In this document: piece by piece, positions 735 through 49,304 of the stretch | Numbering within the stretch: the first letter of the stretch is position 1 | Layout of the letters: each line of letters starts with the position of its first letter | Source of the DNA: a phage | Sequence record: NC_102605.1 | Strand: one strand, 5' to 3' | Length of the DNA stretch: 50,633 nucleotides | Notes under the pieces: model-generated | What the model saw: only the letters and a program-made list of their open reading frames with translations | Told to the model about the DNA's origin: nothing | Database searches by the model: none | Translations under genes and position numbers: made by a program

Positions 735-756
735 GAATAGCACTTTTTGTTAAAAC
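735..756 (+). promoter_or_regulatory. Dyad-motif cassette (aatagcactttttgttaaaa), upstream of gene 812
   Basis: Motif, then tatgat about 22 bp after TTGTTA, then leader tcatcgaaacgaa, RBS and ATG. Confidence 0.6.
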
Positions 757-811
757 CAATCAGTCACGAATTGCTATGATTACTTCATCGAAACGAACTG
801 AGGAATTCACG

Positions 812-1246
812 ATGAAATACACAAACAAATACAACGGACAAACTTACTTCATCGAAAACGGCGTTGTGATGTTTGGTAGCGATGGGCTGTTTATGCAATC
901 ATATTCCAGCATTTCAGACTTCAACCGAATGATCGAGTTAGGCGAATTGGTTCCGGTCAAGCCAACGCGTGAAAACTTCCGAGATCTGGTTAACGAGGCA
1001 AAGAAAGACAATCCAGGCTTGCAAATCCGCTTTGTGGCATTCATCGCACACATTGGATTCAAAGAGGCTTACGCCGGAACGATACCACAACGTAACGCTC
1101 GCTTTATTCGTTGGATTACGGATCGAAAGGCTGATTATGTGCGTTTGCGTGGTCACATGGTTAAAAATGATTATTGCACTGGCTATCACAGCATTTTGGA
1201 TCATGACGATTTCACTGATTTCATTGTTTCCGGCGAATGGCTGTAA
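812..1246 (+). CDS. Hypothetical early protein (144 aa)
   Basis: ORF track 776..1246; internal ATG preceded by GAGGA RBS; no recognisable domain. Confidence 0.6.
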   Translation: MKYTNKYNGQTYFIENGVVMFGSDGLFMQSYSSISDFNRMIELGELVPVKPTRENFRDLVNEAKKDNPGLQIRFVAFIAHIGFKEAYAGTIPQRNARFIRWITDRKADYVRLRGHMVKNDYCTGYHSILDHDDFTDFIVSGEWL

Positions 1247-1265
1247 ATAGCATTTTTTGTTAAAA
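1245..1265 (+). promoter_or_regulatory. Dyad-motif cassette (variant atagcattttttgttaaaa)
   Basis: Overlaps the stop of the previous gene; followed by tatagt and leader cccatcgaaacgaa. Confidence 0.55.
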
Positions 1266-1321
1266 CCGGATCGGGGTAACTTGATATAGTTATCCCATCG
1301 AAACGAAATGAGGATTTAGCA

Positions 1322-1480
1322 ATGACTACTTTGATTACCTGGGAACACGAAAACAGCCAGCCAGTAACCCGCGTGTTTGAAACACTTAGTCAGGCGTATT
1401 TGTTGGCTAATCGTGGAGGATATTACAAGGCGCAAGTAATCGGAGAATTTGGAGAGGTAATTTATGAATTCCACGCTTAA
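1322..1480 (+). CDS. Hypothetical small protein (~52 aa), not in ORF track
   Basis: ATG 7 nt after TGAGGA RBS, directly downstream of a cassette. Confidence 0.4.
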   Translation: MTTLITWEHENSQPVTRVFETLSQAYLLANRGGYYKAQVIGEFGEVIYEFHA

Positions 1481-1748
1481 TTTCCGCAGTTACACGCAAA
1501 CGGTAGACTTTGAAGGGGTTAATATTCCACTTCCTAACATATACCGATATATCACGCGTGATAAATTTGGTTTCATTTGCGCGTGGCGGGAAAAGCCAAA
1601 AAAGGTTGGTGATGAATTCGGTGATGGATCTGAAATGCCGATCACGTTAGGTCATCAGCAAGGCGAAAACTTAACGGTTGTTATTCGCAAGTATCGCCGG
1701 AGTCGTACAAACTCAATAATTTCTATCTTTGGGATCGTGGGAGAATAA
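1464..1748 (+). CDS. Hypothetical protein (94 aa)
   Basis: ORF track; GGAGAGG RBS; overlaps the end of the preceding small ORF. Confidence 0.55.
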   Translation: MNSTLNFRSYTQTVDFEGVNIPLPNIYRYITRDKFGFICAWREKPKKVGDEFGDGSEMPITLGHQQGENLTVVIRKYRRSRTNSIISIFGIVGE

Positions 1749-1749
1749 A

Positions 1750-1899
1750 ATGATTTACGTGCTAATTATTGCGCTTCAAACAATGCAAGGCGAGGCGGTA
1801 ACAACGCAAGAATTTCACAGCAAAGCGCGTTGCCTGGAGGCGCGGCAAATAGTCAAAGATAATACTTTTAGCGCCAGGGCATTTTGTGTTTTGAAATAG
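1750..1899 (+). CDS. Hypothetical small hydrophobic protein (~49 aa), not in ORF track
   Basis: ATG after GGGAGAA; its TAG stop is the TAG of the next dyad motif. Confidence 0.35.
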   Translation: MIYVLIIALQTMQGEAVTTQEFHSKARCLEARQIVKDNTFSARAFCVLK

Positions 1900-1914
1900 C
1901 ACTTTTTGTTAAAC
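1894..1914 (+). promoter_or_regulatory. Dyad-motif cassette
   Basis: aaatagcactttttgttaaac, hairpin gccgga/tccggc, cataat, leader cacacatcaaccaatcaggagaa. Confidence 0.6.
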
Positions 1915-1969
1915 GTGCCGGATCTAATTCCGGCATAATACACACATCAACCAATCAGGAGAATCAACG

Positions 1970-2194
1970 ATGAACTTTGAACAACAAACGCAATTCGAAA
2001 CTGTAGTTACTGAACGTGACGCTACTCATGAGAAAGGTTTATTCAAGAAGGGCGCACAAATCACCGTCGATATTGATGATATGGTTGCATATCACGGCGG
2101 CATTACCTGGAATATCGCAGTGGTTGAGCCAGGCAAGAAATTTAAACTTCTGGCATTCAATACCGTATTTGAAACTGTTGAGGTGGCGCAATGA
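1970..2194 (+). CDS. Hypothetical protein (74 aa)
   Basis: ORF track; CAGGAGAA RBS. Confidence 0.55.
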   Translation: MNFEQQTQFETVVTERDATHEKGLFKKGAQITVDIDDMVAYHGGITWNIAVVEPGKKFKLLAFNTVFETVEVAQ

Positions 2195-2427
2195 GTCGTT
2201 TAAATTTCACCGGAAAGAAAGTAAAAGTTAAATCATCTGGAAAGTGCATGTTAAGCGTTTGGCGCTTTGATGAAGATCGCGAATATGAAATTTTGATGGA
2301 TAGACAAAATGACTTGCATATTTCAGACAATCGCTGCCTTGCCCTTTGTCTTTGCATAACTGAAGACGGAAAGCGGTTGTACGCGCTAGGTGTTGAAAGT
2401 ATTTATTCAATTGAGGTGATAAAATGA
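2191..2427 (+). CDS. Hypothetical protein (78 aa)
   Basis: ORF track; ATGA start/stop overlap with the previous gene. Confidence 0.5.
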   Translation: MSRLNFTGKKVKVKSSGKCMLSVWRFDEDREYEILMDRQNDLHISDNRCLALCLCITEDGKRLYALGVESIYSIEVIK

Positions 2428-2618
2428 TCAATAATACATATCGCGTAGTTGCAATCAGTCGCGCAAATGGTAAACGCGTTGTGTGCTATGAAGGTGATCG
2501 CGCTTGCCTGGCAACTGATACATATGAGGAATTAACAAAACGCCGCCCTACTTTTTACGCCGATTTCAAAGTGGTGCTTGAGCGCCTGGAGCCTGTAATT
2601 GTCATGGAGAGTGATTAA
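2424..2618 (+). CDS. Hypothetical protein (64 aa)
   Basis: ORF track; ATGA overlap. Confidence 0.5.
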   Translation: MINNTYRVVAISRANGKRVVCYEGDRACLATDTYEELTKRRPTFYADFKVVLERLEPVIVMESD

Positions 2619-3584: not shown

Positions 3585-3748
3585 CATATTTCAAAAACAT
3601 AAAAACCGGAAGAATTTACCGCGTAAACCTGCGTCATAAAAACGCTTTAATTATGAGCAAAGGCGGCTGTTGGGTTAGGTCTGCGCGTTATAGAAATGCA
3701 GATTTAACAGGCTATCCGTTTATCGCCGTAAACAGCACGAATTGCTAA
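3581..3748 (+). CDS. Hypothetical small basic protein (~55 aa), not in ORF track
   Basis: ATGA overlap with the upstream gene; open frame ending inside the next motif. Confidence 0.35.
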   Translation: MTYFKNIKTGRIYRVNLRHKNALIMSKGGCWVRSARYRNADLTGYPFIAVNSTNC

Positions 3749-3750
3749 AA
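3732..3750 (+). promoter_or_regulatory. Dyad-motif cassette (palindromic variant agcacgaattgctaaaa)
   Basis: TAGCA-N5-TGCTA-type dyad, followed by tatcat. Confidence 0.5.
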
Positions 3751-3807
3751 ACGATATCGCTCTGATTGGTATCATACTTTCACACAAACAAAATGGAGAA
3801 TCAAAAA

Positions 3808-4029
3808 ATGAAACTGAAAACTGAATCCATCATGAACATTGTCAAAGCTCACGGGAAAGTAGTTTTGAAAATGGATCGCGCTTCTGGATTCCATCAGTTA
3901 ACGATTACCCGCGTAAAAACTGGTTACGCTGTTGGCGAACATCCAGGCGGTAGAATCCGCCGAATAACTGAAAGTGATGCTTACGCGATGATTGACGAAA
4001 TGAGCATGTTTATTGAGAAGTGGGGTTGA
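3808..4029 (+). CDS. Hypothetical protein (73 aa)
   Basis: ORF track 3766..4029; ATG after GGAGAA RBS. Confidence 0.5.
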   Translation: MKLKTESIMNIVKAHGKVVLKMDRASGFHQLTITRVKTGYAVGEHPGGRIRRITESDAYAMIDEMSMFIEKWG

Positions 4030-4454: not shown

Positions 4455-5150
4455 ATGCTTATTTTCTCACTATTTGATGGTTCTGGTTATGCTGCGTTGC
4501 CGTGGGCTGAACGTGGTCACAAAGTGCTGTGCTTTAATTTCGACGGTGCTGATCATGGTGATTACCAATCAGTGCGCGTGACTCATCCCAACATCGTTTA
4601 TTTGAATGAGTGGATCGGATTATCATTCCAGCATAACGCAATGATGCGCGTCTTTGGCACTCCAGATTTTATTATTGCATTCCCTCCATGCACTGATTTA
4701 GCTGTTAGCGGATCGCGTCACTTTGCCGCAAAGCGTGAACGTGATCCAGACTTCCAGAAAAAGGCGGTTGAAACGGCAAAGATTGCTGCCAATATTGCGG
4801 ATCGGTTTAACGTTCCATACATGATTGAGAATCCTGTTAGTGTTCTGTCGTCAATGTGGCGGCAACCTGATTTTATCTTTCATCCTTGCGCGTTTGGAGG
4901 TCTGTTGCCGGAAGATGATAAACATCCTCACTTTCCTGAAATCATTCCCGCTCGCGATGCGTACACCAAAAAAACTTGTCTTTGGACGGGTAACGGCTTT
5001 GTAATGCCGGATACAAACGCAGTATTGCCAACAGGGAACAACAATCCAGGCTGGCAAAAGCTCGGCGGCAAGTCTAAGCGAACAAAGCTGATCCGCTCAC
5101 TCACTCCGCGCGGCTTTGCGCTTGCTGTATGCATGGCAAATCAGAAATAG
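4455..5150 (+). CDS. DNA cytosine-5 methyltransferase-like protein, short, no obvious target-recognition domain (231 aa)
   Basis: Motif I-like FDGSG, PC motif FPPCTDLAVSG and ENV-like IENPV in canonical order; ATG after AAAGGA. Confidence 0.4.
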   Translation: MLIFSLFDGSGYAALPWAERGHKVLCFNFDGADHGDYQSVRVTHPNIVYLNEWIGLSFQHNAMMRVFGTPDFIIAFPPCTDLAVSGSRHFAAKRERDPDFQKKAVETAKIAANIADRFNVPYMIENPVSVLSSMWRQPDFIFHPCAFGGLLPEDDKHPHFPEIIPARDAYTKKTCLWTGNGFVMPDTNAVLPTGNNNPGWQKLGGKSKRTKLIRSLTPRGFALAVCMANQK

Positions 5151-5165
5151 CACTTTTTGTTAAAA
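5145..5165 (+). promoter_or_regulatory. Dyad-motif cassette
   Basis: Motif contains the methyltransferase stop; hairpin gccggat/atccggc; cataat. Confidence 0.6.
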
Positions 5166-5222
5166 CGCCGGATCACGTATCCGGCATAATGATTTCAACG
5201 AAAACAAAAGGAGATAAATCAA

Positions 5223-5585
5223 ATGGCTAAATTCAAATCAATCAAACTTATCGGATCTGATAACCGCCTATACAAAGCGCGGGTAGACGAAAATGATGAT
5301 ACTTTCGTTAAGTTAGATGGGAAATGGATTCACGCCAACTTAACCGGATTAACATTCCGAAATGTTAAGACCAAAACCATTAAATGCACATGGGTAAACC
5401 ACTCCATGCAGATCAAGAAAACTTTCAAAGCCGATAAGCGTTATCAGATAGAACAAGGCCGCGTGTTAGGTGCTGTTGCTGGATACGTGTTCGACGAAAA
5501 CGGCGACCGTTTCACGCTGTATCGGGAAGAAGTTGGATTCTCTGCCGCTGGCGGTGCTTATCTGTTTGAGGCCAAATACTCATGA
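5223..5585 (+). CDS. Hypothetical protein (120 aa)
   Basis: ORF track; AAGGAGA RBS. Confidence 0.6.
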   Translation: MAKFKSIKLIGSDNRLYKARVDENDDTFVKLDGKWIHANLTGLTFRNVKTKTIKCTWVNHSMQIKKTFKADKRYQIEQGRVLGAVAGYVFDENGDRFTLYREEVGFSAAGGAYLFEAKYS

Positions 5586-5830
5586 GTTTACCGGAAAAAG
5601 ATTACATTCCTCACCGTTCTGAGGCCATGCAAAAATACCGTTACAAGGTTGTTTTCAGTGCGATATCCTCATTAAAGGAAGGTGAAACGGTCTATCGCAT
5701 CAGGGATAAGCATTCATATTTGCTGATTGGTCACACGTTCCATCGTTCGCTTGAATTCGATACTAAAACTCTTGAATGTCATAGCATTATAGACGGAAAG
5801 TTATTAGCCAGGGTTGAGCCGATCAAATAG
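5582..5830 (+). CDS. Hypothetical protein (82 aa)
   Basis: ORF track; ATGA overlap; stop TAG inside the next motif. Confidence 0.5.
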   Translation: MSLPEKDYIPHRSEAMQKYRYKVVFSAISSLKEGETVYRIRDKHSYLLIGHTFHRSLEFDTKTLECHSIIDGKLLARVEPIK

Positions 5831-5845
5831 CACGAATTGCTAAAA
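5825..5845 (+). promoter_or_regulatory. Dyad-motif cassette (palindromic variant)
   Basis: aaatagcacgaattgctaaaa; hairpin gttgccg/cggcaac with tataat in the loop. Confidence 0.6.
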
Positions 5846-5897
5846 GGCTGTAGAATGTTGCCGTTATAATTAGCGGCAACAAGAAGGAGATTTTTAG

Positions 5898-7478
5898 ATG
5901 TTTGACTTTGACACCAACAAATTGACACCTCAACAAGTTATAGCCATTGCAGAATCGCAGGGAACATCGCCGCTTCGCGTTGCTATTCAGTCGAACGGCT
6001 ACCGCCAATCGTCCAGCTTTTGGGAGCCTGTGAAGGATATCAACGGCGCTAATGACCGTTATCCTGTGATCTCTTTGGGTAATGATGTTGATGTTGTGGG
6101 TAAACTGTCACGTAGCATTGCTCAATCTGTTCAATTTCCTGAATCATCGGCCTATATGCATTTCATTGGTTGCGTTTCCGCCGCTATGGTTGGACGCTTC
6201 CAGGTTGAGTACCACGGCACTGAACAACCAACGGCGCTTTATGTTGTAACCAGTCAGCCGCCATCAACTGGTAAATCAGCAATCAACAGCCTGGCTATTG
6301 CGCCAATGGTCTGTGAAGTTGAGCGCATCAACGAACAACGCAAGAAAGAGCGAAAGAAGATCGCAGCGAAATTAAAAGGCGTTGAAAAGGAATTGAAAGC
6401 TGAACGTTCCGGCACTGAGTTAGCGGCGTTGTTTGAGGAAAAGGAGGAATTAGAGGAAAAGTTAGAAAAAATGTGCGATATCGTTTTTCCGGTATCAGAC
6501 ACCACGCCGGAAGGGTTAGCAAAGATCAACAATCGCCAGGGTAACTTTGCTGTTATTTCCGATGAAGCAACAAGCATCAACAGCTTACTCGGATTGACTT
6601 ACGCTAATAGTGATCGCAAGACTAACAGCGAATTGGTTCTAAAAGCATGGGACGCAGGACACGTTTCAATAGCTCGCGCCAATTCTGAAAACAATATGAG
6701 TTTTGTTGCGTTGGGCTGCATGAGCGTAATTGCCCAGGATGAAACGATAAAAGGGATCATGGATGCAGGGGCGCGGGGTATCGGTGTTAGTGAACGTTTC
6801 TTGCTTGTGCGTGAAAAAACAATGTTAGGCGAGCGTGTATTTATTGATGAAAATGGTGATCTTGATTACACGCCAGTTGATAAAGAATTAAAGGCGCAAT
6901 ATTTCCAGTTGATTCATAACATCATGACTGAACAAAATGTTGTATTGAAGCCGTCACGTTCTGCAATGCGTGTTCTTAATATTGCTCGCCAGCAATTAGA
7001 GCCAGATTTAGCAGACGGCGGAAAATATTCACATACAATGTTGCGTGGTGCTTTGGGTAAAATGGATAAACAAGTGATTCGTATTGCGTCAGTATTGCAC
7101 ACGATCCGCAATTGGTTTAATCCAAACGGTACGCCGCAAAAGTCGCGAGAAATTGAAGTTGAGACAATGCAAGAGGCTTTGGTGATGTTCAGCGAATTAA
7201 GCAAAACATATATTAACGCCGCGAATGCTTCCGGTCACGCTGGCGATGATGCCGAAATGAGCAAGTTAATTGAAATCATCATTAAGATCTCACGTCAAAA
7301 TAAAGGCGTTACCAATGCAAGAGCGATATATGAAAGTGCGCGTAAGGTTAAGCCGTTTACAGGTCAATCAGGCGTTATGAAACGAATTGAGGAACAATTA
7401 TTGCCAATGCTTGAAGAAAAGAATTATGTTTGCAGCGTTGGTAAATTTGTTTATGTCAATCCTGCGTTAATGGGGTAA
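5898..7478 (+). CDS. P-loop NTPase-like protein of unknown function, possibly DUF3987/replication-associated (526 aa)
   Basis: Walker A-like PPSTGKS, Walker B-like VISDE, charged coiled-coil KKERKK...EELEEKLEK; AAGGAGA RBS. Confidence 0.45.
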   Translation: MFDFDTNKLTPQQVIAIAESQGTSPLRVAIQSNGYRQSSSFWEPVKDINGANDRYPVISLGNDVDVVGKLSRSIAQSVQFPESSAYMHFIGCVSAAMVGRFQVEYHGTEQPTALYVVTSQPPSTGKSAINSLAIAPMVCEVERINEQRKKERKKIAAKLKGVEKELKAERSGTELAALFEEKEELEEKLEKMCDIVFPVSDTTPEGLAKINNRQGNFAVISDEATSINSLLGLTYANSDRKTNSELVLKAWDAGHVSIARANSENNMSFVALGCMSVIAQDETIKGIMDAGARGIGVSERFLLVREKTMLGERVFIDENGDLDYTPVDKELKAQYFQLIHNIMTEQNVVLKPSRSAMRVLNIARQQLEPDLADGGKYSHTMLRGALGKMDKQVIRIASVLHTIRNWFNPNGTPQKSREIEVETMQEALVMFSELSKTYINAANASGHAGDDAEMSKLIEIIIKISRQNKGVTNARAIYESARKVKPFTGQSGVMKRIEEQLLPMLEEKNYVCSVGKFVYVNPALMG

Positions 7479-10825: not shown

Positions 10826-10883
10826 TTTACAAATCCTCGTTTCGTTTCGTTGAAATGATTATGCCCCACATAAGCGGGGCCTT

Positions 10884-35675: not shown

Positions 35676-35701
35676 GTTCAAGTGTTTTTTGTGTTAGCAC
35701 G

Positions 35702-41381: not shown

Positions 41382-41383
41382 CT

Positions 41384-41908: not shown

Positions 41909-41995
41909 AATAAAATCCTCCTGTTGATGCGTGATTATAGCTAAATTGTATGCACAAAAAAACCCGCGCAAGGCGGGTTATGTTTCGGCTTTGGA

Positions 41996-42226: not shown

Positions 42227-42405
42227 GATATTTCCCTCACGTAATTAATTGAAAATTGGTGTGTATCAGGGTTAGCGCCCGAAAGCTCTTTAGCTCTTGC
42301 TGCCGCCTCAAGAGCTCCTCTTGCGTCAACCTCGCATTCAAAATCTTGCTTGCATGATCCGCAATTGCGACCCATGCGCCTGATAGTAAGTTTAACTTTC
42401 CACTT
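42220..42405 (-). CDS. Cys-containing small basic protein
   Basis: Track 42220..42447 (alternative start codon); internal ATG; CGSCKQDFEC cluster. Confidence 0.4.
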   Translation of the reverse strand, partial: KWKVKLTIRRMGRNCGSCKQDFECEVDARGALEAAARAKELSGANPDTHQFSINYVREISC

Positions 42406-42601
42406 CATCAGGCTTGTCCTCTTGTAACTTAACCATAAAATCACCAATGCGACCTAACACCGCCTCGCCTTTCTTGAATCGCTTTTTATATCGCGTTTTC
42501 TTTCCTTCGCGCTCAACGATGATTGTTACCTTTGCGATTTCTTTGTTTTGCATTGTGAATTCTCCTGAACGGTTGCGGGTTACGGCTCCCGCGATTGTCA
42601 T
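42392..42601 (-). CDS. Hypothetical basic protein (69 aa)
   Basis: ORF track. Confidence 0.45.
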   Translation of the reverse strand: MTIAGAVTRNRSGEFTMQNKEIAKVTIIVEREGKKTRYKKRFKKGEAVLGRIGDFMVKLQEDKPDEVES

Positions 42602-42684
42602 TCGCCTTGCGATCCAATCCGATTAAGTTTTACGGCTAACGCGCCGCGCTTTGCTCTATTGAGCCTCTTATGTTCACGGCGTTT

Positions 42685-42713
42685 AATCTACCAATCAGAC
42701 AACACTCCGTCAA
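42685..42713 (-). promoter_or_regulatory. Possible sigma70-type promoter TTGACG-17-TAGATT
   Basis: Hexamers read on the minus strand upstream of the 42601 gene; no dyad motif here. Confidence 0.35.
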
Positions 42714-42735
42714 CCTTCATTGATTCAAGTGCTTA

Positions 42736-43002
42736 TTATTCATACTCGCCAGGCTTACCCCATCGACCAGCAATATAGCCAGCAAGCCATACAAACTTTG
42801 TTCGAGTGATTAGGGTAGAAATTGGCGCGTGATGTTTGGTGATAATTCCAGCCGCAATATGATCGTATTTGTTGCCACTTGTCACTTCAACTTTCAGATC
42901 CTTCATGCACTCTTTTGCAGCACGTTTAACAATGTTATATTCAGCCTCATTAAGTCCAAACATTTTACAGTCCTCTTGATTTCCAAAGTTGAAACATTTC
43001 AA
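42736..43002 (-). CDS. Hypothetical protein (88 aa)
   Basis: ORF track. Confidence 0.45.
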   Translation of the reverse strand: MKCFNFGNQEDCKMFGLNEAEYNIVKRAAKECMKDLKVEVTSGNKYDHIAAGIITKHHAPISTLITRTKFVWLAGYIAGRWGKPGEYE

Positions 43003-43156
43003 AGTAGTGCAACGCCGTGTCAGTGTCGCCGCGCTCTAACGCTTCCTCTTGCTTCTGTGCGCACCACTGCGACGGTTTTATGTATTCAGGCATAGAATCA
43101 CCTTTCCAAAAAATGCGCCTCTTAGAATGCGATTGAGGCGCTTTAAAAGCTATCAA
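42965..43156 (-). CDS. Hypothetical protein (63 aa)
   Basis: ORF track. Confidence 0.45.
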   Translation of the reverse strand: MIAFKAPQSHSKRRIFWKGDSMPEYIKPSQWCAQKQEEALERGDTDTALHYFEMFQLWKSRGL

Positions 43157-43491
43157 TTTTCGTTAAATTTTCCGTCAAGAATATCACGGATATTGCCTAG
43201 CGTTTTGACCTTCCAGCAATCCCATTGCGTTGATCCTGGCTCATAGTTTCGCGGCGACCCTGGCGCGTCAGTTGTGAGATCGTCAATCAAGCATGACACC
43301 TCATCAACAATCAGATCCTTTATATGCTCGCGATCAATCCATTCGCTTTCTAAGTTTTCCACTGACTCAAACGCCTGAACCACTCCACCTAAAACGCGTT
43401 GCTGTGCTTGCGCTTCTTCTAACGTGTCGTGAATGTTTCTGATCTGCTTGCTGCCAAACTTGCCAACGCCGTAAGAGTGAATGTAAATCAT
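43153..43491 (-). CDS. Hypothetical protein (112 aa)
   Basis: ORF track; overlap with neighbours. Confidence 0.5.
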   Translation of the reverse strand: MIYIHSYGVGKFGSKQIRNIHDTLEEAQAQQRVLGGVVQAFESVENLESEWIDREHIKDLIVDEVSCLIDDLTTDAPGSPRNYEPGSTQWDCWKVKTLGNIRDILDGKFNEN

Positions 43492-43739
43492 GCTAACACC
43501 TCGTTTTTACGCTTCCACTTCTCAACATCCATTTCATTAAGGCCGTTTTCATGCCTCCACACAGCCAACTCCGCCGCGCTTGTTGAGGCTGGCATCAGTT
43601 TATGCTCAAGCTGTGCAAAAAGCTCTCTTGCTACTTCCTCTTTGATGTTTACAACCGCCTCGATACCGCTACCCATTCGCCAGCCAAGTCCGCGCAACAA
43701 TGATTTCGCTTGTTCTTCTGATAGGTTAATTGTGATCAT
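43488..43739 (-). CDS. Hypothetical protein (83 aa)
   Basis: ORF track. Confidence 0.5.
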   Translation of the reverse strand: MITINLSEEQAKSLLRGLGWRMGSGIEAVVNIKEEVARELFAQLEHKLMPASTSAAELAVWRHENGLNEMDVEKWKRKNEVLA

Positions 43740-43945
43740 TCTTCTTCCTCCACTGCATAAAACTTGATTCGGCTATTATCAACAAGAAACATAACGTCGT
43801 TATCCCATTTATCGGCTTCTACTTCGTAATATTCCTGGTTATCGTCATCAGCCAGAATTACGCGATCTTCATCAATGATTAGCTCATAAGTGCCGCAGTA
43901 AATCGGGTTTTCGCTTTCAAACATCTTGCCAGTGTATACAGCCAT
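43736..43945 (-). CDS. Hypothetical acidic protein (69 aa)
   Basis: ORF track; GGAGA RBS; cassette upstream. Confidence 0.5.
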   Translation of the reverse strand: MAVYTGKMFESENPIYCGTYELIIDEDRVILADDDNQEYYEVEADKWDNDVMFLVDNSRIKFYAVEEEE

Positions 43946-44004
43946 TTTCTAAATCTCCGTGTTTCGCTTCAATGAGGACACTTTAACAAATGCCCTCGCG
44001 GAAG

Positions 44005-44025
44005 TTTTAACAAAAAGTGCTATTT
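44005..44025 (-). promoter_or_regulatory. Dyad-motif cassette (minus orientation)
   Basis: Reverse complement aaatagcactttttgttaaaa; motif TAG is the stop of the upstream gene. Confidence 0.55.
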
Positions 44026-44517
44026 TTGCAGGCCAATCAGCGCATCAGCCAACGCTCTTACAACCTTTGCATGAGTCACTATATTTTCACCTTCCGGCAC
44101 TCGCAGCACTTCACGCAGTTGCTCTAACGCTTTGACGTATTCGTTAGGCTCTGAGTTAATCAACGCATTGAATCGCGCATTCTCAATTACAGAATCAACT
44201 GATTTTGCAATTACGCGATCTTGAATTCCAACCGTCATTTCACCGCGCATTGATTTGAAGATATCGCCACCAGGCGAACATGAATTTCTAACCTGCTCCG
44301 CTACTATATCGCGAATTCGTTCACGCTCTGCTAATGCGCTTGCTTCATCTGCGATCCGCTTTGCGTTGCTTAGGTGCTCGCTTTCGAAAAGAGTTTTATC
44401 AAGCCAAACTCTAACGCCATTATCAGCAACAACCAGGTAAAGAGTATCTATGCTATTCAAAACGGTATAGTCACGGCCTTTTGTCAGGTAGTTATAAAAA
44501 TCATTTTTAGCTTTCAT
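44020..44517 (-). CDS. Hypothetical protein (165 aa)
   Basis: ORF track. Confidence 0.55.
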   Translation of the reverse strand: MKAKNDFYNYLTKGRDYTVLNSIDTLYLVVADNGVRVWLDKTLFESEHLSNAKRIADEASALAERERIRDIVAEQVRNSCSPGGDIFKSMRGEMTVGIQDRVIAKSVDSVIENARFNALINSEPNEYVKALEQLREVLRVPEGENIVTHAKVVRALADALIGLQK

Positions 44518-44529
44518 ATTTTATTCTCC

Positions 44530-44775
44530 TTACCAACAAGAAATTTCTTCTTCTGCGAAATAGTCATAGTCAAATTGACACCAATCCTTCAAAGGCGTAT
44601 CAATCCACTTTGCGAAATCTTCCAGAATTTCGGAGTTGTAGTTATCCGCAATGCAGCGACCCCAGGCGCGAGCATTCTTGTAACCGTACATACTAAACGT
44701 GTAAGGCGTTTTAGCTGAATCACCCCATCTTTTAGCAATCTTTGCGAATGCGCGTACCAGCATTTTTCTATTCAT
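44530..44775 (-). CDS. Hypothetical protein (~81 aa)
   Basis: Track 44530..44847 starts at TTG; first in-frame ATG (MNRKMLV) taken. Confidence 0.4.
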   Translation of the reverse strand: MNRKMLVRAFAKIAKRWGDSAKTPYTFSMYGYKNARAWGRCIADNYNSEILEDFAKWIDTPLKDWCQFDYDYFAEEEISCW

Positions 44776-44902
44776 TTGATTTGTACCCCACGTAATAACC
44801 AGCCATACCCAAAACAGTGCCACCAAAAGGAACACAATCAGCGACAATCAAAATATTGCCAATTATGACAAGTAGGATAAATATTAACCACATCTTAATC
44901 AT
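44768..44902 (-). CDS. Membrane micropeptide (~44 aa), not in ORF track
   Basis: Hydrophobic ORF whose ATG overlaps the stop of the upstream ORF. Confidence 0.3.
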   Translation of the reverse strand: MIKMWLIFILLVIIGNILIVADCVPFGGTVLGMAGYYVGYKSNE

Positions 44903-45059
44903 CTTTTTCAACCTTAACGGGAGTGTTAAAAACATACGTTTTGAGCGTATGGCCTTTTGAATCCTTCGTTATGATGTTCACCGTGTCGCCGTCGCGCCGT
45001 TCTTCTAGTTCAACGCCAGGCACATAAAGCAACCCTTGCGGCGAATGAATCCAGAACAT
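44895..45059 (-). CDS. Hypothetical small protein (~54 aa), not in ORF track
   Basis: ATG after GGAGG RBS overlapping the stop of 45062..45259. Confidence 0.35.
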   Translation of the reverse strand: MFWIHSPQGLLYVPGVELEERRDGDTVNIITKDSKGHTLKTYVFNTPVKVEKDD

Positions 45060-45061
45060 TT

Positions 45062-45259
45062 TTATTCCTCCACGATCTCAAACTCTGCAAGTACGAAAGA
45101 GCCAACGTTTACAGATAATCCGCCTTTACCGTTTAAGAAGAATTGACCGCCGTACTCATGCGTTACAGTTGGGCTAAACCCGTTTACACCTTCTTCCATG
45201 TGGTAAATCGCGCCAACTGTCAGATTCAGGGTGTTTGATTTTGTGCATTTAATTTTCAT
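45062..45259 (-). CDS. Hypothetical protein (65 aa)
   Basis: ORF track; GAGGAA RBS; cassette upstream. Confidence 0.5.
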   Translation of the reverse strand: MKIKCTKSNTLNLTVGAIYHMEEGVNGFSPTVTHEYGGQFFLNGKGGLSVNVGSFVLAEFEIVEE

Positions 45260-45326
45260 CGATTATTCCTCTGATTGGCCTTGCTTCTCTTGAATAAGGC
45301 CACTATAACAAATGGCCTTGCGCAAG

Positions 45327-45347
45327 TTTTAGCAATTCGTGCTATTT
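45327..45347 (-). promoter_or_regulatory. Dyad-motif cassette (palindromic variant, minus orientation)
   Basis: Reverse complement aaatagcacgaattgctaaaa; hairpin ggcc/ggcc with tatagt-like loop. Confidence 0.55.
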
Positions 45348-45917
45348 AAGGTGATCGCTAATGATTTCGCTAACTGTAATCATCGGCTTTTCATTGGTTA
45401 GTAAGTAATCGTGCTCGCTATATCCGTTTTTCTGGTAATAGGGATTGATTCGAATGTAGTTGCGGCTATCACCTGCAAACGTGAACCCGTCGCGATGCAA
45501 GCGGCATAGCTTCACTTCATTACCAGCATTGATTAGAGCGATAATTTCATCTGGAAAACCACCATCAGTGCAAACAACAGGAGCATCACACTCTTTTACT
45601 TTCTGGTTAAACCTTACGCCGAAATAATCCTTGCCGAATTTAGGTTTGATTACATCCTCGCTAATCCATATCATGAACTCACGCGGTGACATACCCATCA
45701 GGAATGTTTGCGGCCTTTCTTTCTGCTCTCTGTCATCATAAGCCAACATGAAGCGCTGATAGTTCTCTTTACCCAGGATAGCCAATGCAATGTCAAACAT
45801 TGGCTCTTTAAAGCTAATAATGCGGCATTGCTCACCAGGCGAATAGAAAGAAATCATCTTGCCGATTGTGTCTTTACCAGCGCCAGGCGGCGCATTGAGG
45901 ATTATAATTTTAGCCAT
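45342..45917 (-). CDS. Deoxynucleoside monophosphate kinase-like P-loop kinase
   Basis: N-terminal P-loop NAPPGAGKDT, resembling phage dNMP kinases (GxxxSGKDT). Confidence 0.55.
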   Translation of the reverse strand: MAKIIILNAPPGAGKDTIGKMISFYSPGEQCRIISFKEPMFDIALAILGKENYQRFMLAYDDREQKERPQTFLMGMSPREFMIWISEDVIKPKFGKDYFGVRFNQKVKECDAPVVCTDGGFPDEIIALINAGNEVKLCRLHRDGFTFAGDSRNYIRINPYYQKNGYSEHDYLLTNEKPMITVSEIISDHLK

Positions 45918-46089
45918 CTTTATTCACCTTAAAATATTGAACGGTTAATGTTTCTTCGATCTGAGTCCATCCGTGATTTCTTGACTCAATACTAACATCA
46001 TTTAATGCTGCCTCGCCGGACTCAAGAGCATCAGCAAGCGCTCGCAGATAGTTGATCGTCTTTGTCGTTTCGATCTTGTTGTCAAGCAT
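45910..46089 (-). CDS. Hypothetical small protein (~59 aa)
   Basis: Internal ATG of track ORF 45910..46152, chosen to abut the upstream gene. Confidence 0.35.
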   Translation of the reverse strand: MLDNKIETTKTINYLRALADALESGEAALNDVSIESRNHGWTQIEETLTVQYFKVNKDG

Positions 46090-46370
46090 CATAAGAAAAT
46101 AAACCCCACTGCAAAAATTAACATGATTGTGATTAATGCCACATTTGCGCAAAAATCACCGCGTTTATAAAAAGGCTTTTCGTTCTTTTTTTCTACAAGA
46201 ATATACTTCCCATTTTCCATGCCATGATAAAAACATTCATTTGTTAATGATGTTGGTATTGCATCAGAAACAAAACTTGAATCATTGACAAGGATTCTGC
46301 CATCATCCATTACAAAATAATAAACCTGCTTACCATTAACAAACATATCAACAGCTCTATAAACTTTCAT
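46089..46370 (-). CDS. Hypothetical protein with C-terminal TMD (93 aa)
   Basis: ORF track; AAGGAG RBS; cassette upstream. Confidence 0.5.
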   Translation of the reverse strand: MKVYRAVDMFVNGKQVYYFVMDDGRILVNDSSFVSDAIPTSLTNECFYHGMENGKYILVEKKNEKPFYKRGDFCANVALITIMLIFAVGFIFL

Positions 46371-46427
46371 TCGTCATTCTCCTTGCTTGTCTCGACAAGG
46401 CACACTTTATCAAATGTGCCTTAGCAA

Positions 46428-46448
46428 GTTTTAGCAAAAAGTGCTATT
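46428..46448 (-). promoter_or_regulatory. Dyad-motif cassette (minus orientation)
   Basis: Reverse complement of the motif; hairpin aaggcaca/tgtgcctt. Confidence 0.55.
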
Positions 46449-46636
46449 TAATAAGGCAATTCATCAGCAAGCCGCTTTATATGATCCGCTAATTCTCTTG
46501 CGCTTTTCTTGTCTAATATGGCGCGAAACTGCAATTTGGTGTCGTCGTCATATTTACAATCAATCCAGACTGATTCACCGCGACTGTAAACAAGAATATT
46601 GTCACCATGCCGATCCTGAATATTCTTTGAATGCAT
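46448..46636 (-). CDS. Hypothetical protein (62 aa)
   Basis: ORF track; CAGGAGGGA RBS. Confidence 0.5.
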   Translation of the reverse strand: MHSKNIQDRHGDNILVYSRGESVWIDCKYDDDTKLQFRAILDKKSARELADHIKRLADELPY

Positions 46637-46728
46637 TATCTATCCCTCCTGTTGATATCCAATAGACAAATCACAACCGCCACGATAAAAGCACCAATTC
46701 CCCAGGCAAGCGCCATTGGATCATAGTT

Positions 46729-46905
46729 TTCAATCACAGATAGCGATCCTCTACAAAATCCTCTGTTTCGAAATCAATGCTACGTAAATCACCATCATCA
46801 TCAATGACAACATAGCATTCATAACCAAATGTGTGATCCATTCCGATTGTTGCATTGTACATGTTGCCAACCGTAAAACCTGGATATTCACCTATGCATT
46901 TTAGT
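46729..46905 (-). CDS. Hypothetical small acidic protein (~58 aa), not in ORF track
   Basis: ATG directly after the stop of the HAD phosphatase gene. Confidence 0.3.
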
Positions 46906-46906
46906 T

Positions 46907-47449
46907 TCATAACTTTTCAACTCCGTGAGACTTTAAGTGATCGTGTAACTGCTCTCCGTAGTCAATGACCTGGTAAACCGTCAAGCCCAGGCCGCGCAGG
47001 TGTGCAATAACGTTTGGTGAGTCATCCCAACATGCGACAATGCGATCAAGTCCTATAGTCCGTAAAACTTCCTCTTTGATTACGGTATCTTTCCGGTTAT
47101 CGCTGGCGCGGCGCATAATCAACCAATCGAAAGAAACGCCGTTTTCAGCTAACCATGCGCGTGTTTCCGCCTCTACTTCGTCGCTACGGCCTGTTAGGAT
47201 GATAACCAGGTATCCGGCATCAAACATGGCGTTGCACACGGCAATGTTATTGCTGAATGGTAAATCATCCTTAGCCGCGCGGTTAAACTCACTCCAGCTT
47301 TCAGTAAGGTGCAAGTCAACAGTTGGCAACAGGTGCAAGCGGTGCTCACCATTTGACAATGTGCCGTCTAGGTCGAAAATAACGAAACGCTGTTTTGTTG
47401 CAATGTAGTGATTAGCGTATTCCTTCCCCCACAATTCGATCTTAAACAT
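46907..47449 (-). CDS. HAD-superfamily phosphatase, possible 5'-deoxynucleotidase
   Basis: N-terminal DxDGT motif (FDLDGTL) and HAD-like downstream motifs. Confidence 0.6.
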   Translation of the reverse strand: MFKIELWGKEYANHYIATKQRFVIFDLDGTLSNGEHRLHLLPTVDLHLTESWSEFNRAAKDDLPFSNNIAVCNAMFDAGYLVIILTGRSDEVEAETRAWLAENGVSFDWLIMRRASDNRKDTVIKEEVLRTIGLDRIVACWDDSPNVIAHLRGLGLTVYQVIDYGEQLHDHLKSHGVEKL

Positions 47450-47450
47450 C

Positions 47451-47558
47451 CATTACCCCACAAATTCGATGACAATGTAAGCGATGCCAGCCAGCACAAC
47501 GGTAGCGAGCACAATCATAGAGCCGTATTTAAGAAACTGCTTAATTGATTCTTTTGAC
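47451..47558 (-). CDS. Membrane micropeptide (~35 aa), not in ORF track
   Basis: ATG after AGAGAGGA RBS; single predicted TMD. Confidence 0.3.
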
Positions 47559-47618
47559 ATTTTTCTATCCTCTCTTGTTGGTTGATGCGGTCATTGTACC
47601 AATCAGCACACATGACCG

Positions 47619-47638
47619 CTTAACATTTTGTGCTATTA
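47619..47638 (-). promoter_or_regulatory. Dyad-motif variant (aatagcac-aaaat-gttaa), minus orientation
   Basis: Same arms with an A-rich spacer; upstream of the micropeptide ORF. Confidence 0.4.
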
Positions 47639-47938
47639 CTTGCGCTTAACTTTCTGTGCAAACTTCATGCAGCGCTTGAAATCAACATCACTGGCTTTTG
47701 TAACGTGGCTTTGAATCATTGTAACCTTTGTTCCGCTTCCGATATCTCGCCAGTGCTCATGGCCTCCGGTATCACCAAATTCACTGCAAAGCTCACCATG
47801 CAAACTAAATCCATTTACACCACATTTGTAAATCCAAAACGGATTAATAAGATCATCTTTGTTGACGTGCAAGAATGCGTAAGTGTCACGAATTGATGTG
47901 TGAGTGAGTGCATAAACCGCGTTACGTGCTAATTTCAT
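47636..47938 (-). CDS. Hypothetical protein (~100 aa)
   Basis: Track 47636..47980; internal ATG after AGAGGA. Confidence 0.5.
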   Translation of the reverse strand: MKLARNAVYALTHTSIRDTYAFLHVNKDDLINPFWIYKCGVNGFSLHGELCSEFGDTGGHEHWRDIGSGTKVTMIQSHVTKASDVDFKRCMKFAQKVKRK

Positions 47939-47994
47939 TATCCGATCCTCTTTGTTTTGTGTGGGGTCACTATACCGCAACCCCGAAATTTTGT

Positions 47995-48014
47995 TTTAGC
48001 AAAAAGTGCTATTA
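47995..48014 (-). promoter_or_regulatory. Dyad-motif cassette (minus orientation)
   Basis: Reverse complement aatagcactttttgctaaaa; hairpin ggggt/acccc with tatagt in the loop. Confidence 0.55.
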
Positions 48015-48015
48015 C

Positions 48016-48192
48016 ATGAACCAGCCCATTAATGCGCCAGCAGGTGCAACGAATATCCCTATTGCGCGAATGATTAATTCGTTGGTTGTGATATCGCCAA
48101 ACATTTCAACGATATTCATGATCCAGCCAGCGATTGCAGCAATCCACAAAGAAAAGAAAGCGATTCCAGCGACACCATATAATTTCATGTTA
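48016..48192 (-). CDS. Small two-TMD membrane protein (~58 aa), not in ORF track
   Basis: ATG after CAGGAGAAG RBS; two hydrophobic segments. Confidence 0.35.
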
Positions 48193-48245
48193 ACTTCTCC
48201 TGTTTGTTTTGTATTGGCTTACTATACCGCAAGCCCAAAATTCTG

Positions 48246-48266
48246 TTTTAGCAATTCGTGCTGTTT
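48246..48266 (-). promoter_or_regulatory. Dyad-motif cassette (palindromic variant, minus orientation)
   Basis: Reverse complement aaacagcacgaattgctaaaa. Confidence 0.5.
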
Positions 48267-48814
48267 TTGATTTTTACGTTAGTGCCGCGCTTAATGTTGA
48301 TTTCAGCGCCGTAATTATTGCCGTTCTTGTAACCTCCAGAATAACCGGAAAGCAAGCAAATAACATCGTCGTGTACTTCAATGCGGCGCGGTTTAAATTT
48401 CAACTCGTCCCATTCGCCATTTTCACGCTGAACACCTAACAGCGTTGCGCCAACTGGCATATTTTCAACCTTGCAAATGTAATCGTAATCTTTAGCACCT
48501 ACTGACGCAGTAAACACAGCACCGTTTAAATTGACATGGCCAGGACTGATATTTAAATATTTCATCGCATCTAACAGATCGTTATCCTCGCGTTTTTCTT
48601 CTTTGCCACAAGTAGCCATTTCATAATACCCATCTTTGCCAGGGATATTATCTGGATTTTTATTGTTGTGCTTGTTAACGAAATACTCAAGTTTAAATCC
48701 GGTTATTCCACCACCTTCCCACTCTCCGCGCGTTTTACTGGTGAAAGTAACTTGCATGTCAGGCTGATAGAATTTAAAGGTGATCGGGAAGTTGATTTTT
48801 TCGATGATTAACAT
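48248..48814 (-). CDS. Hypothetical protein (~188 aa)
   Basis: Track 48248..48850; internal ATG after AAGGAG. Confidence 0.55.
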   Translation of the reverse strand: MLIIEKINFPITFKFYQPDMQVTFTSKTRGEWEGGGITGFKLEYFVNKHNNKNPDNIPGKDGYYEMATCGKEEKREDNDLLDAMKYLNISPGHVNLNGAVFTASVGAKDYDYICKVENMPVGATLLGVQRENGEWDELKFKPRRIEVHDDVICLLSGYSGGYKNGNNYGAEINIKRGTNVKIKNSTNC

Positions 48815-48864
48815 TGTTGATTCTCCTTTGCTTAACTCAACGAGGGACACTATAACAAATGCCC

Positions 48865-48885
48865 CTGATTTAGTTTTAGCAATTC
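48865..48885 (-). promoter_or_regulatory. Dyad-motif cassette (palindromic variant, minus orientation)
   Basis: Reverse complement aatagcacgaattgctaaaa. Confidence 0.5.
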
Positions 48886-48966
48886 GTGCTATTGATCATT
48901 TTCTTTATTCTGTGGCGGTAGAATTGCATTACGTGCTCATTGTGCCAACTGCTCATTTGTTGCTCC

Positions 48967-49227
48967 TTACTTAACAATGCGGCATTCACCATAGCTGAAC
49001 GGTAAAAACGTGTCACTATCCATGCAATCAGGAATTGCACACATGCGGCCTTTTACCTTGTCATATCCAGCCGCAACCAGGGCATCAAGAGGAACGTCAA
49101 CCATTCCGACTTCCACGCCATAATCAAGGCAATTATCAATTCGGATTGGGAATGTTAAATGTTTCATTCCGTCATAGGTTCCGTCATTCAGAATTTCAAC
49201 AGTTACGCGGGTTAGTTCGAATTGCAT
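48967..49227 (-). CDS. Hypothetical Cys-containing protein (86 aa)
   Basis: ORF track; cassette upstream. Confidence 0.5.
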   Translation of the reverse strand: MQFELTRVTVEILNDGTYDGMKHLTFPIRIDNCLDYGVEVGMVDVPLDALVAAGYDKVKGRMCAIPDCMDSDTFLPFSYGECRIVK

Positions 49228-49283
49228 TTTATTTTCTCCGTTGTGTTTCGATGGGGTAATTATGCCAAACTACCCAGATTCAG

Positions 49284-49304
49284 TTTTAACAAAAAGTGCT
49301 ATTT
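49284..49304 (-). promoter_or_regulatory. Dyad-motif cassette (minus orientation)
   Basis: Reverse complement aaatagcactttttgttaaaa. Confidence 0.55.

Follow-up and report, generated by a model that had tools for sequence, protein, structure and literature searches.

Repeated promoter cassettes of a T1-like phage as candidate targets of host MarA/SoxS/Rob-type activators

What reads the short repeat that takes the place of a −35 element upstream of about 20 genes in the phage genome NC_102605.1? The genome, all 50,633 nucleotides of which make up the window analysed here, is that of a Tlsvirus, a T1-like member of the Drexlerviridae. An exact 115-bp direct repeat is present at both ends (1–115 = 50519–50633), a terminal duplication which indicates that the genome is complete, circularly permuted and written with an overlap. 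By megablast of the first 20 kb, the closest relatives are Escherichia phage Henu4_2 and Salmonella phages YSP2 and KKP 3830 (98% identity), while phage TLS is 93% identical.

The repeat family itself has already been published. TLS was reported to carry 21-nt direct repeats in 18 intergenic copies, with the consensus aaATAGCACnnnTTGnTAAAA, lying ~76 nt 5′ of start codons and oriented with transcription, and repeats of this type were also reported for T1, Rtp and Rogue1 (PMC11447400, 2024). The repeats described below are the same elements in a different Tlsvirus isolate. The TLS authors list the function of the repeats as an open question, offering stoperators, enhancer sites and UP elements as suggestions, and their paper makes no mention of the marbox, of AraC-type proteins, of a fixed distance to a −10 hexamer or of stem-loops as part of the unit (PMC11447400). 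Full-text searches, made with marbox and phage as terms and with the motif string, found no literature linking the marbox to phage repeats, and no start-site mapping or transcriptome data for the Drexlerviridae were found in the searchable literature. The identification of the repeats as consensus marboxes in class II promoter position appears to be new.

The repeat and the marbox

A first-pass annotation of the genome had proposed a family of at least 20 dyad motifs, each oriented with the gene downstream. The motif is present at every one of the positions listed there (19/19), and a scan of both strands with a position weight matrix (PWM) built from the copies brings the number to 22, of which 20 are co-oriented with the downstream gene and lie in an intergenic promoter cassette. 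These 22 sites, all scoring at least 17.9 bits, stand apart, shuffled sequence yielding 0–2 sites above 10 bits. The three additional copies are located at 15320–15339 (+ strand, primase), 25761–25780 (− strand, degenerate) and 35657–35676 (+ strand, antisense). The copies precede genes, and none is found inside the long late-region operons with the exception of two special ones. Whilst the motif is real, the consensus originally proposed (TAGCAC, then ttttt or gaat, then TTGyTA) was one base too long: searched for literally, as TAGCACN{4,6}TTGYTA, it has no matches because of this mis-transcription. The real motif is ATAGCAC-N4-TGYTAAAA, where N4 is TTTT, GAAT, AAAA or TGAT. The pattern AGCACNNNNTGYTAA has 19 exact matches; with up to one mismatch allowed there are 22, where shuffles lead one to expect 2.3.

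The marbox is an asymmetric 20-bp site bound by monomeric AraC/XylS-type activators with a pair of helix–turn–helix (HTH) motifs, namely MarA, SoxS and Rob (joined by RamA in Salmonella and Klebsiella), and in its older form is written as the 20-mer AYnGCACnnWnnRYYAAAYn. Grainger's group gives the consensus as GCAHWWWWTGYYAAA (PMC6900184), and in MarA, SoxS and RamA sites the recognition elements GCAC and CAAA/AAA lie 7 bp apart (PMC8811837, PMC9638938). The phage repeats have their GCAC and YAAA elements at the same 7-bp distance. Perfect matches to GCAHWWWWTGYYAAA number 14 in the genome, 13 of them at repeats (as GCACTTTTTGTTAAA or GCACTTTTTGCTAAA), and nine further repeats match with one mismatch, giving 23 matches in total against 3.8 expected. 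The older consensus, searched as the 19-mer AYnGCACnnWnnRYYAAAY at up to one mismatch, likewise gives 23 matches (20 repeats and three non-repeats) where 1.5 are expected. An extra one-mismatch match to GCAHWWWWTGYYAAA, the marbox 15-mer, reading GCAAAGATTGCTAAA and located at 44731–44745 on the minus strand, lies inside a coding region, shows no cassette features and is probably due to chance.

The resemblance also holds in the reverse direction. When a PWM made from the phage copies only was scanned over both strands of four 50-kb stretches of E. coli K-12 (200 kb), the best hit was the micF marbox (ACAGCACTGAATGTCAAAAC, 17.4 bits) and the second the marRAB marbox (ATGCCACGTTTTGCTAAATC, 14.7 bits), with the third reaching only 10.1 bits. 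Perfect matches to GCAHWWWWTGYYAAA are absent from these 200 kb, as against 14 in the 50.6-kb phage genome, so that the phage sites depart less from consensus than do the classical sites of the chromosome. A candidate fumC marbox picked by eye (ATGGCACGAAAGACCAAACA) scored −2.3 bits; that weaker chromosomal marboxes are missed indicates that the true specificity is broader than the phage matrix allows.

Is the repeat, then, a dyad, as had been proposed? The arms of the GAAT variant, TAGCA and TGCTA, are certainly complementary, but the motif as a whole is asymmetric. The G of the left arm is invariant (22/22), whereas its mirror position is C or T in a ratio of ~10:11; the nearly invariant C that follows TAGCA faces T, not G; and the conserved flanks read AA (left) and AAAA (right) instead of TT...AA. 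Tested for two-fold symmetry, the conserved positions are symmetric in the 5-bp arms alone. Complementary arms of the TAGCA/TGCTA kind come with the marbox consensus itself (GCA...TGC), and, as far as sequence comparison goes, every conserved position of the repeat can be accounted for by the asymmetric marbox. Because conservation is asymmetric and the orientation relative to the −10 hexamer is single, neither of which a symmetric dimer site needs, the repeat is not a true dyad. On its sequence, we identify it as a consensus marbox.

Class II geometry and its conservation

The gap between marbox and −10 hexamer is 18 bp in 18 of the 22 copies and 17 bp in two; counted from TGYTA, this is the fixed spacing of about 22 bp claimed previously (22 nt in 18/22 copies, 21 nt in two). 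At this spacing the hexamers are all TAnnnT or CATAAT, about half of the cassettes have an extended −10 (TGn), and 13 of the 18 hexamers at the 18-bp gap are followed by CA at the expected +1. Start sites are inferred throughout, +1 being placed ~7 nt after the hexamer, which puts the marbox centre at about −40.5 to −41.5, overlapping the −35 position. The class II placing of the motif centre (~−41/−42) by the first-pass annotation is thereby borne out, with a motif resembling a protein-binding site where the −35 element would be. A sigma70 scan of the genome reported no −35/−10 promoters at the cassettes, and what stands 17 bp upstream of the −10 is the marbox's AAAAC tail. Relative to both gene and −10, the 20 cassette copies without exception have the forward orientation (GCAC upstream, AAA downstream).

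This is the arrangement known from class II promoters of the host, where the marbox orientation is forward (PMC6900184, PMC12052159, PMC8811837). Genome-wide, class II sites are forward, cluster at −41/−41.5 and lack a recognisable −35 (PMC10268841, PMC8811837, PMC9638938), with the promoters matching the −35 consensus at a mean of 1.9/6 positions (PMC10268841), and in the case of micF, a class II promoter, binding of the activator dislodges sigma70 from the −35 position (PMC10268841, PMC12052159). In K-12 the micF marbox (23034–23053) is separated by 18 bp from the −10 TAGAAT, a gap identical to that of the phage cassettes, and its centre lies at −41.5 from the annotated RNA start (23085).

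Three other promoter types were considered and rejected. Read as a −35 element, TTGYTA would leave a spacer of 22 bp. The sigma54 (−24/−12) promoter, TGGCAC-N5-TTGCW, differs in having GG where the motif has AG and in being 2 bp longer in spacing, and is also disfavoured by the sigma70-type −10 that follows the motif at a fixed distance. A MotA box of the T4 type would lie at −30, not −41.

Motif and spacing are kept across members of the Drexlerviridae. At a cut-off of >8 bits (>6 bits for Vc1), the PWM finds 24 sites in T1 (Tunavirinae), 20 in Rtp (Braunvirinae), 18 in Rogue1 (Rogunavirinae), 19 in Klebsiella phage KP36 (Webervirus), 22 in Henu4_2 and 20 in Vibrio phage Vc1 (Jhansiroadvirus, NC_054898.2). 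The cassette layout is common to all six, the motif consensus is unchanged between subfamilies and some Vc1 cassettes are, by eye, ~75% identical to those of the present genome. For spacing, we combined this genome with T1, Rtp, Rogue1, KP36 and Vc1 (sites >12 bits, n = 114). An xAxxxT hexamer is found exactly 18 bp downstream in 86/114 sites, with nearly all the others at 17 or 19 bp; the most frequent hexamer is TATAGT, TGn is present in 35/86 cassettes (41%) and CA at the expected +1 in 52/86.

Taken as a whole, the sequence evidence inclines us to the view that the cassettes are class II promoters using a host activator of the MarA/SoxS/Rob type, a reading to be weighed below against its rivals.

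Individual cassettes follow a common plan. At the left end of the genome, on the plus strand, cassette 737–812 comprises a marbox at 737–756 (ATAGCACTTTTTGTTAAAAC), the 18-bp gap, a −10 TATGAT at 775–780 (TGn), an inferred +1 at ~787 and an ATG at 812. It is followed by cassettes 1247–1322 (marbox 1247–1266; −10 TATAGT 1285–1290, TGn, in the loop of a 9-bp stem; ATG 1322), 1896–1970 (marbox 1896–1915; stem-loop GCCGGA/TCCGGC abutting the −10 CATAAT 1934–1939; ATG 1970), 2800–2876 (marbox 2800–2819; −10 CATAAT 2838–2843, TGn; ATG 2876), 3732–3808 (marbox of the GAAT type 3732–3751; −10 TATCAT 3770–3775, TGn; ATG 3808), 5147–5223 (marbox 5147–5166; stem-loop; −10 CATAAT 5185–5190; ATG 5223) and 5827–5898, whose GAAT-type marbox (5827–5846) and −10 TATAAT (5865–5870, in the loop of a 7-bp stem) precede the ATG at 5898 of a DNA helicase/DUF3987-type gene. 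The remaining plus-strand cassette, that of the primase (15320–15395), has a TGAT-type marbox (15320–15339), the closest to micF, with a −10 TATCAT at 15358–15363 and an ATG at 15395; here the −10 lies in the loop of a 13-bp, terminator-like hairpin with a T-run (15344–15374).

On the minus strand, the marbox at 10882–10901 is followed by a stem-loop, the −10 CATAAT (10858–10863) and the ATG at 10825 (cassette 10825–10901), and that at 12240–12259 by the stem-loop GGCGCA/TGCGCC, the −10 CATAAT (12216–12221) and the ATG at 12184 (cassette 12184–12259). The gap is 17 bp in the helicase HelA cassette (14639–14717; marbox 14698–14717, −10 TATGAT 14675–14680) and in cassette 20389–20464 (marbox 20445–20464; −10 TATACT 20422–20427 in the loop of a 9-bp stem; ATG 20389). 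Towards the right end, also on the minus strand, lie cassettes 43945–44023 (marbox 44004–44023; −10 TAAAGT 43980–43985, TGn, in the loop of a 10-bp stem; ATG 43945), 45259–45345 (GAAT marbox 45326–45345; −10 TATAGT 45302–45307, TGn, in a hairpin loop; ATG 45259), 46377–46447 (marbox 46428–46447; −10 TAAAGT 46404–46409, TGn, in the loop of a 12-bp stem; ATG 46377) and 47560–47636, whose AAAA-type marbox (47617–47636) is the weakest promoter-linked copy (−10 TACAAT 47593–47598, TGn; ATG 47560). In each of the last four the −10 falls in a hairpin loop: 47938–48012 (marbox 47993–48012; −10 TATAGT 47969–47974; ATG 47938), 48188–48264 (GAAT marbox 48245–48264; −10 TATAGT 48221–48226; ATG 48188), 48814–48892 (GAAT marbox 48873–48892; −10 TATAGT 48849–48854, TGn; ATG 48814) and 49227–49302 (marbox 49283–49302; −10 CATAAT 49259–49264, TGn; ATG 49227).

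Downstream of the −10, a Shine–Dalgarno (SD) sequence and a start codon follow, as had been stated. The conserved leader also described is more restricted: (T/A)CGAAA(C/A) is found in ~6–7 cassettes, about a third, while the rest fall into three other families, TCAACCAA, CACAAAACAAA and (G/T)T(C/T)(A/G)AG. Cassette geometry, with SD and ATG ~25 nt after the inferred +1, favours start codons at 812, 3808, 10825, 12184, 20389, 47938 and 48814, which for several open reading frames (ORFs) lie downstream of the first possible start (776, 3766, 12328, 20431, 47980, 48850).

Stem-loops, special copies and canonical promoters

In the stretch that separates the marbox from +3, most cassettes have an inverted repeat whose sequence varies. 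When this 34-nt segment was folded for 77 cassettes drawn from five genomes, the mean z-score relative to shuffles was −2.7, with z < −2 in 66%. Two layouts can be distinguished: a GC-rich hairpin ending at the −10 (GCCGGA/TCCGGC-ATAAT), and a hairpin with the −10 in its loop and its 3′ arm in the discriminator (GGGGTA...TATAGT TACCCC). Since the stem-loop lies upstream of the cassette's own inferred start, it would form only in read-through RNA from the gene upstream. For T1, the sequence record lists several such hairpins as rho-independent terminators; most are without a T-run, that of the primase cassette having one. A role as terminator, insulator or 3′ stabiliser is likely but unproven. 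Compensatory changes were looked for among orthologous cassettes of this genome, Henu4_2 and TLS, and the differences proved to be mostly pair-breaking changes or segment replacements (one compensatory, three one-sided and 18 pair-breaking), giving no covariation support and indicating that individual hairpins are dispensable.

A further feature is confined to a sub-family of four minus-strand cassettes (43945–44023, 45259–45345, 46377–46447 and 48814–48892), in which the sequence after the marbox (CTTGCT, CTTGCG or CTTCCG) is complementary to segments at the downstream SD. The partners on the SD side, AGCAAGGAG, GCAAGG and GAAGCG, adjoin or overlap the SD, which could on this complementarity be sequestered in read-through RNA and not in RNA initiated at the cassette. 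The sub-family is kept in T1, KP36 and Vc1.

Some genes are served by promoters of the ordinary type, and all four that had been named are present. TTGACT-17-CATAAT at 109–137 (− strand) drives, by virtue of the 115-bp terminal duplication, the DUF7174 gene at the right end of the genome (50122–50628); TTGACT-17-TATCAT (14651–14679, +) is a canonical sigma70-type promoter for the Cro-like regulator gene; TTGCAT-17-CATAAT (16411–16439, +) precedes the tail-fibre gene, just after a terminator at 16385–16406; and TTGACT-16-TATAAT (21549–21576, −) that for a RecE-like exonuclease. The two-tier programme built on these promoters stands only in part. Canonical sigma70 promoters do serve a few other genes, but the proposed order, with sigma70 promoters first and cassettes dependent on a phage activator second, is not established; a host activator, if it is the reader, would be present at time zero. 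Cassettes also serve DNA-metabolism genes and presumptive early genes, so named for TLS (PMC11447400). Matches to canonical −35/−10 pairs number 32 in the segment 1–20000 and 16 in 40001–50633, compared with 44.3 and 23.7 in dinucleotide shuffles, while the structural-gene segment 20001–40000 shows no depletion (39 compared with 40.8), which suggests that ordinary promoters are avoided where the cassettes cluster.

Three copies of the repeat occupy positions of special interest. The major-capsid promoter, otherwise of canonical extended −10 type, TTGAAC-16-(TGc)TATATT (35654–35681, −), has a reversed repeat (35657–35676, +) filling its spacer and −10, an arrangement also found in T1 (TTGACG-16-TATTAT, ~15067–15095), Henu4_2 and Vc1 and, in degenerate form, in KP36. 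From its position this repeat is predicted to act as an operator that would bring the late capsid gene under the same factor. Repression is to be expected whatever protein binds here, and the copy is therefore uninformative as to whether the reader comes from host or phage. A degenerate copy, ATAGCACAAAAGGTTAAAAG, at 25761–25780 (−), lies on the ribosome-binding site of the gene for a 1258-aa J-like tail-tip protein, 5 nt before the ATG; it has no −10 at 17–19 bp and is kept in T1 (25021) and Henu4_2. The third is the helicase copy. The −10 of the regulator (TATCAT, 14674–14679, +) overlaps that of the helicase cassette (TATGAT, 14675–14680, −) back to back, so that RNA polymerase can occupy one or other promoter and not both. 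Reversed with respect to the regulator transcript, the helicase marbox is read through just before the regulator SD. The marbox at 14698–14717 favours transcription towards the helicase and stands where the regulator transcript has to pass. The same back-to-back layout is found in T1, Rtp, Rogue1, KP36 and Vc1 and, together with the capsid arrangement, suggests a switch.

Candidate readers and known systems

A phage-encoded MarA-like protein was sought and rejected. Stop-to-stop ORFs in all six frames contain no MarA/SoxS/Rob homologue (small profile and phmmer searches, best E 0.3), Pfam finds no HTH_18/AraC domain in 20 ORFs of no assigned function, and the single annotated regulator is Cro-like by both sequence and predicted fold. 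In the absence of a MarA-like phage protein, a host marbox activator is the most economical mechanism. Host RNA polymerase would be recruited to ~20 early and DNA-metabolism promoters by this activator, most plausibly the constitutively abundant Rob, with MarA, SoxS or RamA adding to its effect under stress. The bound activator would contact the alpha C-terminal domain and sigma70 region 4 and so substitute for −35 recognition, as at class II mar/sox/rob promoters. Each cassette would form a compact module running from stop codon through activator site, stem-loop, −10, leader and SD to ATG, and the same factor would repress the capsid promoter through the reversed copy. More speculatively, replicating genomes with ~20 sites each might titrate a limited activator, such that the early promoters fall and the capsid promoter is released.

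Several observations weigh against a host reader. Without stress, cells contain little MarA or SoxS, and most Rob is kept in an inactive state. The same cassettes are present in Vc1, a phage recorded on Vibrio cholerae, though this host label is perhaps unreliable; 20 T1-like phage records are, in addition, labelled as Campylobacter phages. Such labels may be unreliable, or the element may work in non-enteric hosts. The hairpins of orthologous cassettes, as described above, are mostly broken by the changes between close relatives. No start-site mapping for T1-like phages was found in the searchable literature. A Keio screen with the TLS-like phage LL5 recovered only receptor and lipopolysaccharide genes, secB and ppiB, and not rob, marA or soxS (PMC7229145). 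No single one of these three is thus essential for LL5 plating. The screen is not decisive, since any of the three activators can stand in for another at a marbox and an extended −10 gives a promoter basal activity; it fits redundancy or substantial basal activity, yet gives dependence on a host activator no support.

The strongest competitor is the Cro-like regulator itself (14728–15336, +; TLS gp57/T1 gp23 family), the only recognisable DNA-binding regulator. It has a single HTH, matches Pfam P22_Cro/YdaS and Cro proteins in the PDB (E 7e-4), and its AlphaFold model (pLDDT 82) resembles Xfaso1 and N15 Cro (also P22 Cro) and not MarA. As a dimer bound to TAGCA-N5-TGCTA at −41, it might activate or shut off the cassettes and regulate itself through its own leader. 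The family is confined to T1-like phages and co-occurs with the repeat (45 protein clusters; 824 phage records), the regulator being present in every genome that has the repeat; and in six of six genomes a repeat lies between the regulator's canonical sigma70 promoter and its SD, directly before the latter, with no other conserved element there. This co-conservation tells against a host activator, for the regulator may be what actually reads the repeat. Cro-like proteins recognise short dyads, 5-bp complementary arms with centres 10 bp apart would suit a dimer, the repressor-type position in the capsid promoter is classical for Cro/CI proteins and the lack of a rob, marA or soxS phenotype fits a phage-encoded factor. 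Yet only 10 of the ~17 conserved positions are symmetric, and the C after TAGCA, the Y of the right arm and the AA/AAAA flanks are always oriented alike relative to transcription. The predicted recognition helix, moreover, differs greatly from one homologue to the next (KTVWGW, QTVNQW, QAVEEW, GTIRGW and others), yet the DNA motif stays constant across subfamilies. Were the regulator the reader, the marbox match, the placing of micF and marRAB at the head of the hit list and the 18-bp geometry could only be put down to coincidence or mimicry. We regard a Cro operator as unlikely, though deserving of serious attention. Two features of the protein may be recorded here: its N-terminal segment, IDKRTINGNNGxRRGxDxxxRK...EVRAGLRARL, is nearly invariant, basic and predicted to be disordered, and in Tlsvirus the protein ends in a long lysine/glutamate-rich C-terminal helix with the terminus STDC that is absent from T1, Rtp and KP36.

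The remaining explanations dispense with an activator or with promoters altogether. A/T-rich, curved DNA might contact the alpha C-terminal domains in the manner of an UP element and boost extended −10 promoters that lack a −35 with no dedicated protein at all, and a resemblance of the repeats to UP elements was indeed pointed out by the TLS authors (PMC11447400). The repeat does have A/T-rich flanks and a central T or A tract, TGn (35/86 cassettes) can work without a −35 and the Keio screen recovered no host activator gene. The most conserved positions, however, are G, C, A, C and T, G (~2 bits each) and not A/T tracts, the repeat spans about −50 to −31, not −59 to −38, with no −35 hexamer downstream, TGn is missing from about half of the cassettes, and the repeat, on inspection, fits the UP consensus poorly where its match to the marbox is complete. 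The invariant G/C positions, the span and the lack of a following −35 led us to reject an UP element, and we consider the protein-free explanation improbable. Repeat and stem-loop might instead form an RNA-level signal for processing, termination or antitermination (akin to boxA/boxB, or to the RNase III/E sites of the T7 early region), the hexamers being incidental: a conserved box of the single-stranded type followed by a variable hairpin recalls nut and processing sites, hairpins are strongly enriched, several are annotated as terminators in T1 and one here has a T-run, and the C/T variation in the right arm would keep G-U pairing with the left. Such a signal would hardly be expected to show a hexamer at one exact distance in 86/114 sites, TGn in 41% and CA at +1 in 52/86; the 5-bp stem of the repeat itself is weak, the hairpin may lie ahead of the −10 or enclose it although motif and −10 stay a constant distance apart, hairpins are not kept between close relatives and the reversed copies in the capsid promoter and regulator leader would be read as their complement. 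We think an RNA signal very improbable. Silencing sites like the stoperators of mycobacteriophage L5, at which a repressor blocks elongating polymerase between genes, would agree with repeats that are numerous, intergenic and oriented with transcription. Against this, the phage is virulent, the annotation of a close relative includes no integrase or immunity repressor, a roadblock has no need of a fixed distance to a −10, and the repeats are found only before genes and, two special copies apart, never inside the long late operons. Stoperators of the L5 type belong to a temperate phage, where they are dispersed both inside and between genes irrespective of promoter elements; with sites locked to a −10 at 17–18 bp in a virulent phage, we rejected the L5-type stoperator, the least probable of all these readings.

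Returning to the host activator, a broader proposal may be put forward, which we hold to be possible but doubtful: that the Drexlerviridae have wired ~20 early and DNA-metabolism promoters and a capsid operator to MarA/SoxS/Rob/RamA, tying expression to the stress state of the host (bile salts, salicylate, oxidants, antibiotics), and that the hundreds of consensus marboxes carried by replicating phage genomes titrate the activator, acting as a copy-number timer by which early promoters fade and the capsid gene is derepressed, whilst disarming the host mar/sox/rob response.

Whatever the fate of this proposal, identification of the repeats as marboxes in class II position makes the open question of the TLS repeats directly testable. 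T1-like phages have been described with only about three recognisable promoters and, if host activators are the readers, most early transcription would run through an antibiotic-resistance activator family; no precedent for phage early transcription via host MarA/SoxS/Rob-type activators was found in the searchable literature. Phage productivity would be linked to bile, salicylate, oxidative and antibiotic stress, a matter of relevance to phage therapy given that many candidates for Klebsiella, E. coli and Salmonella are Drexlerviridae. The cassettes would also provide synthetic biology with a set of compact, near-consensus MarA/SoxS/Rob-responsive promoters, and annotation with better gene starts, since cassette geometry pinpoints start codons. 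If the Cro-like protein is the reader, the mimicry of the marbox would itself need explaining.

How do the cassettes compare with known systems? PeSL (promoter-early stem-loop) cassettes, said to have been described in T4-type phages by Arbiol et al. in 2010, are reportedly repeated intergenic units of early promoter and stem-loop before small early genes of unknown function. The phage cassettes resemble them in being short, repeated, intergenic modules of a promoter-like unit and a stem-loop that precede many such genes, and are likewise candidates for recombination-driven gene shuffling. PeSL promoters, however, are strong sigma70 promoters with their own −35, whereas in the phage cassette the −35 is replaced by an activator site and the stem-loop lies inside the promoter (in spacer, −10 or discriminator), not beside it. 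In T4 middle promoters a MotA box centred at −30, 11–13 bp from the −10, is used by AsiA-remodelled sigma70. There too a factor-binding box replaces the −35 and the sigma70 −10 is kept, but the phage box lies at −41, 18 bp from the −10, and no appropriation of the MotA/AsiA type would be needed if a host class II activator is used.

The closest parallels are found in the host. MarA and Rob repress promoters such as rob, purA and hdeA, in which a reversed marbox overlaps the core promoter, and the capsid promoter, as known here from its sequence, similarly has a reversed copy across the −35/−10 spacer and the −10. The cassettes themselves share with the class II promoters of micF, and also of lpxC P2, lpxL P1 and rfaY P1, a 20-bp marbox with GCAC and YAAA elements in forward orientation at ~−41, the lack of a usable −35 and an ordinary sigma70 −10, and with micF in particular the 18 bp to the −10. 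Unlike their chromosomal counterparts, they occur at a density of ~20 per 50 kb in a virulent genome, almost all their sites are at or one step from consensus where chromosomal marboxes are degenerate, a stem-loop lies between activator site and +1, and leader and SD are packaged with them as a repeated module.

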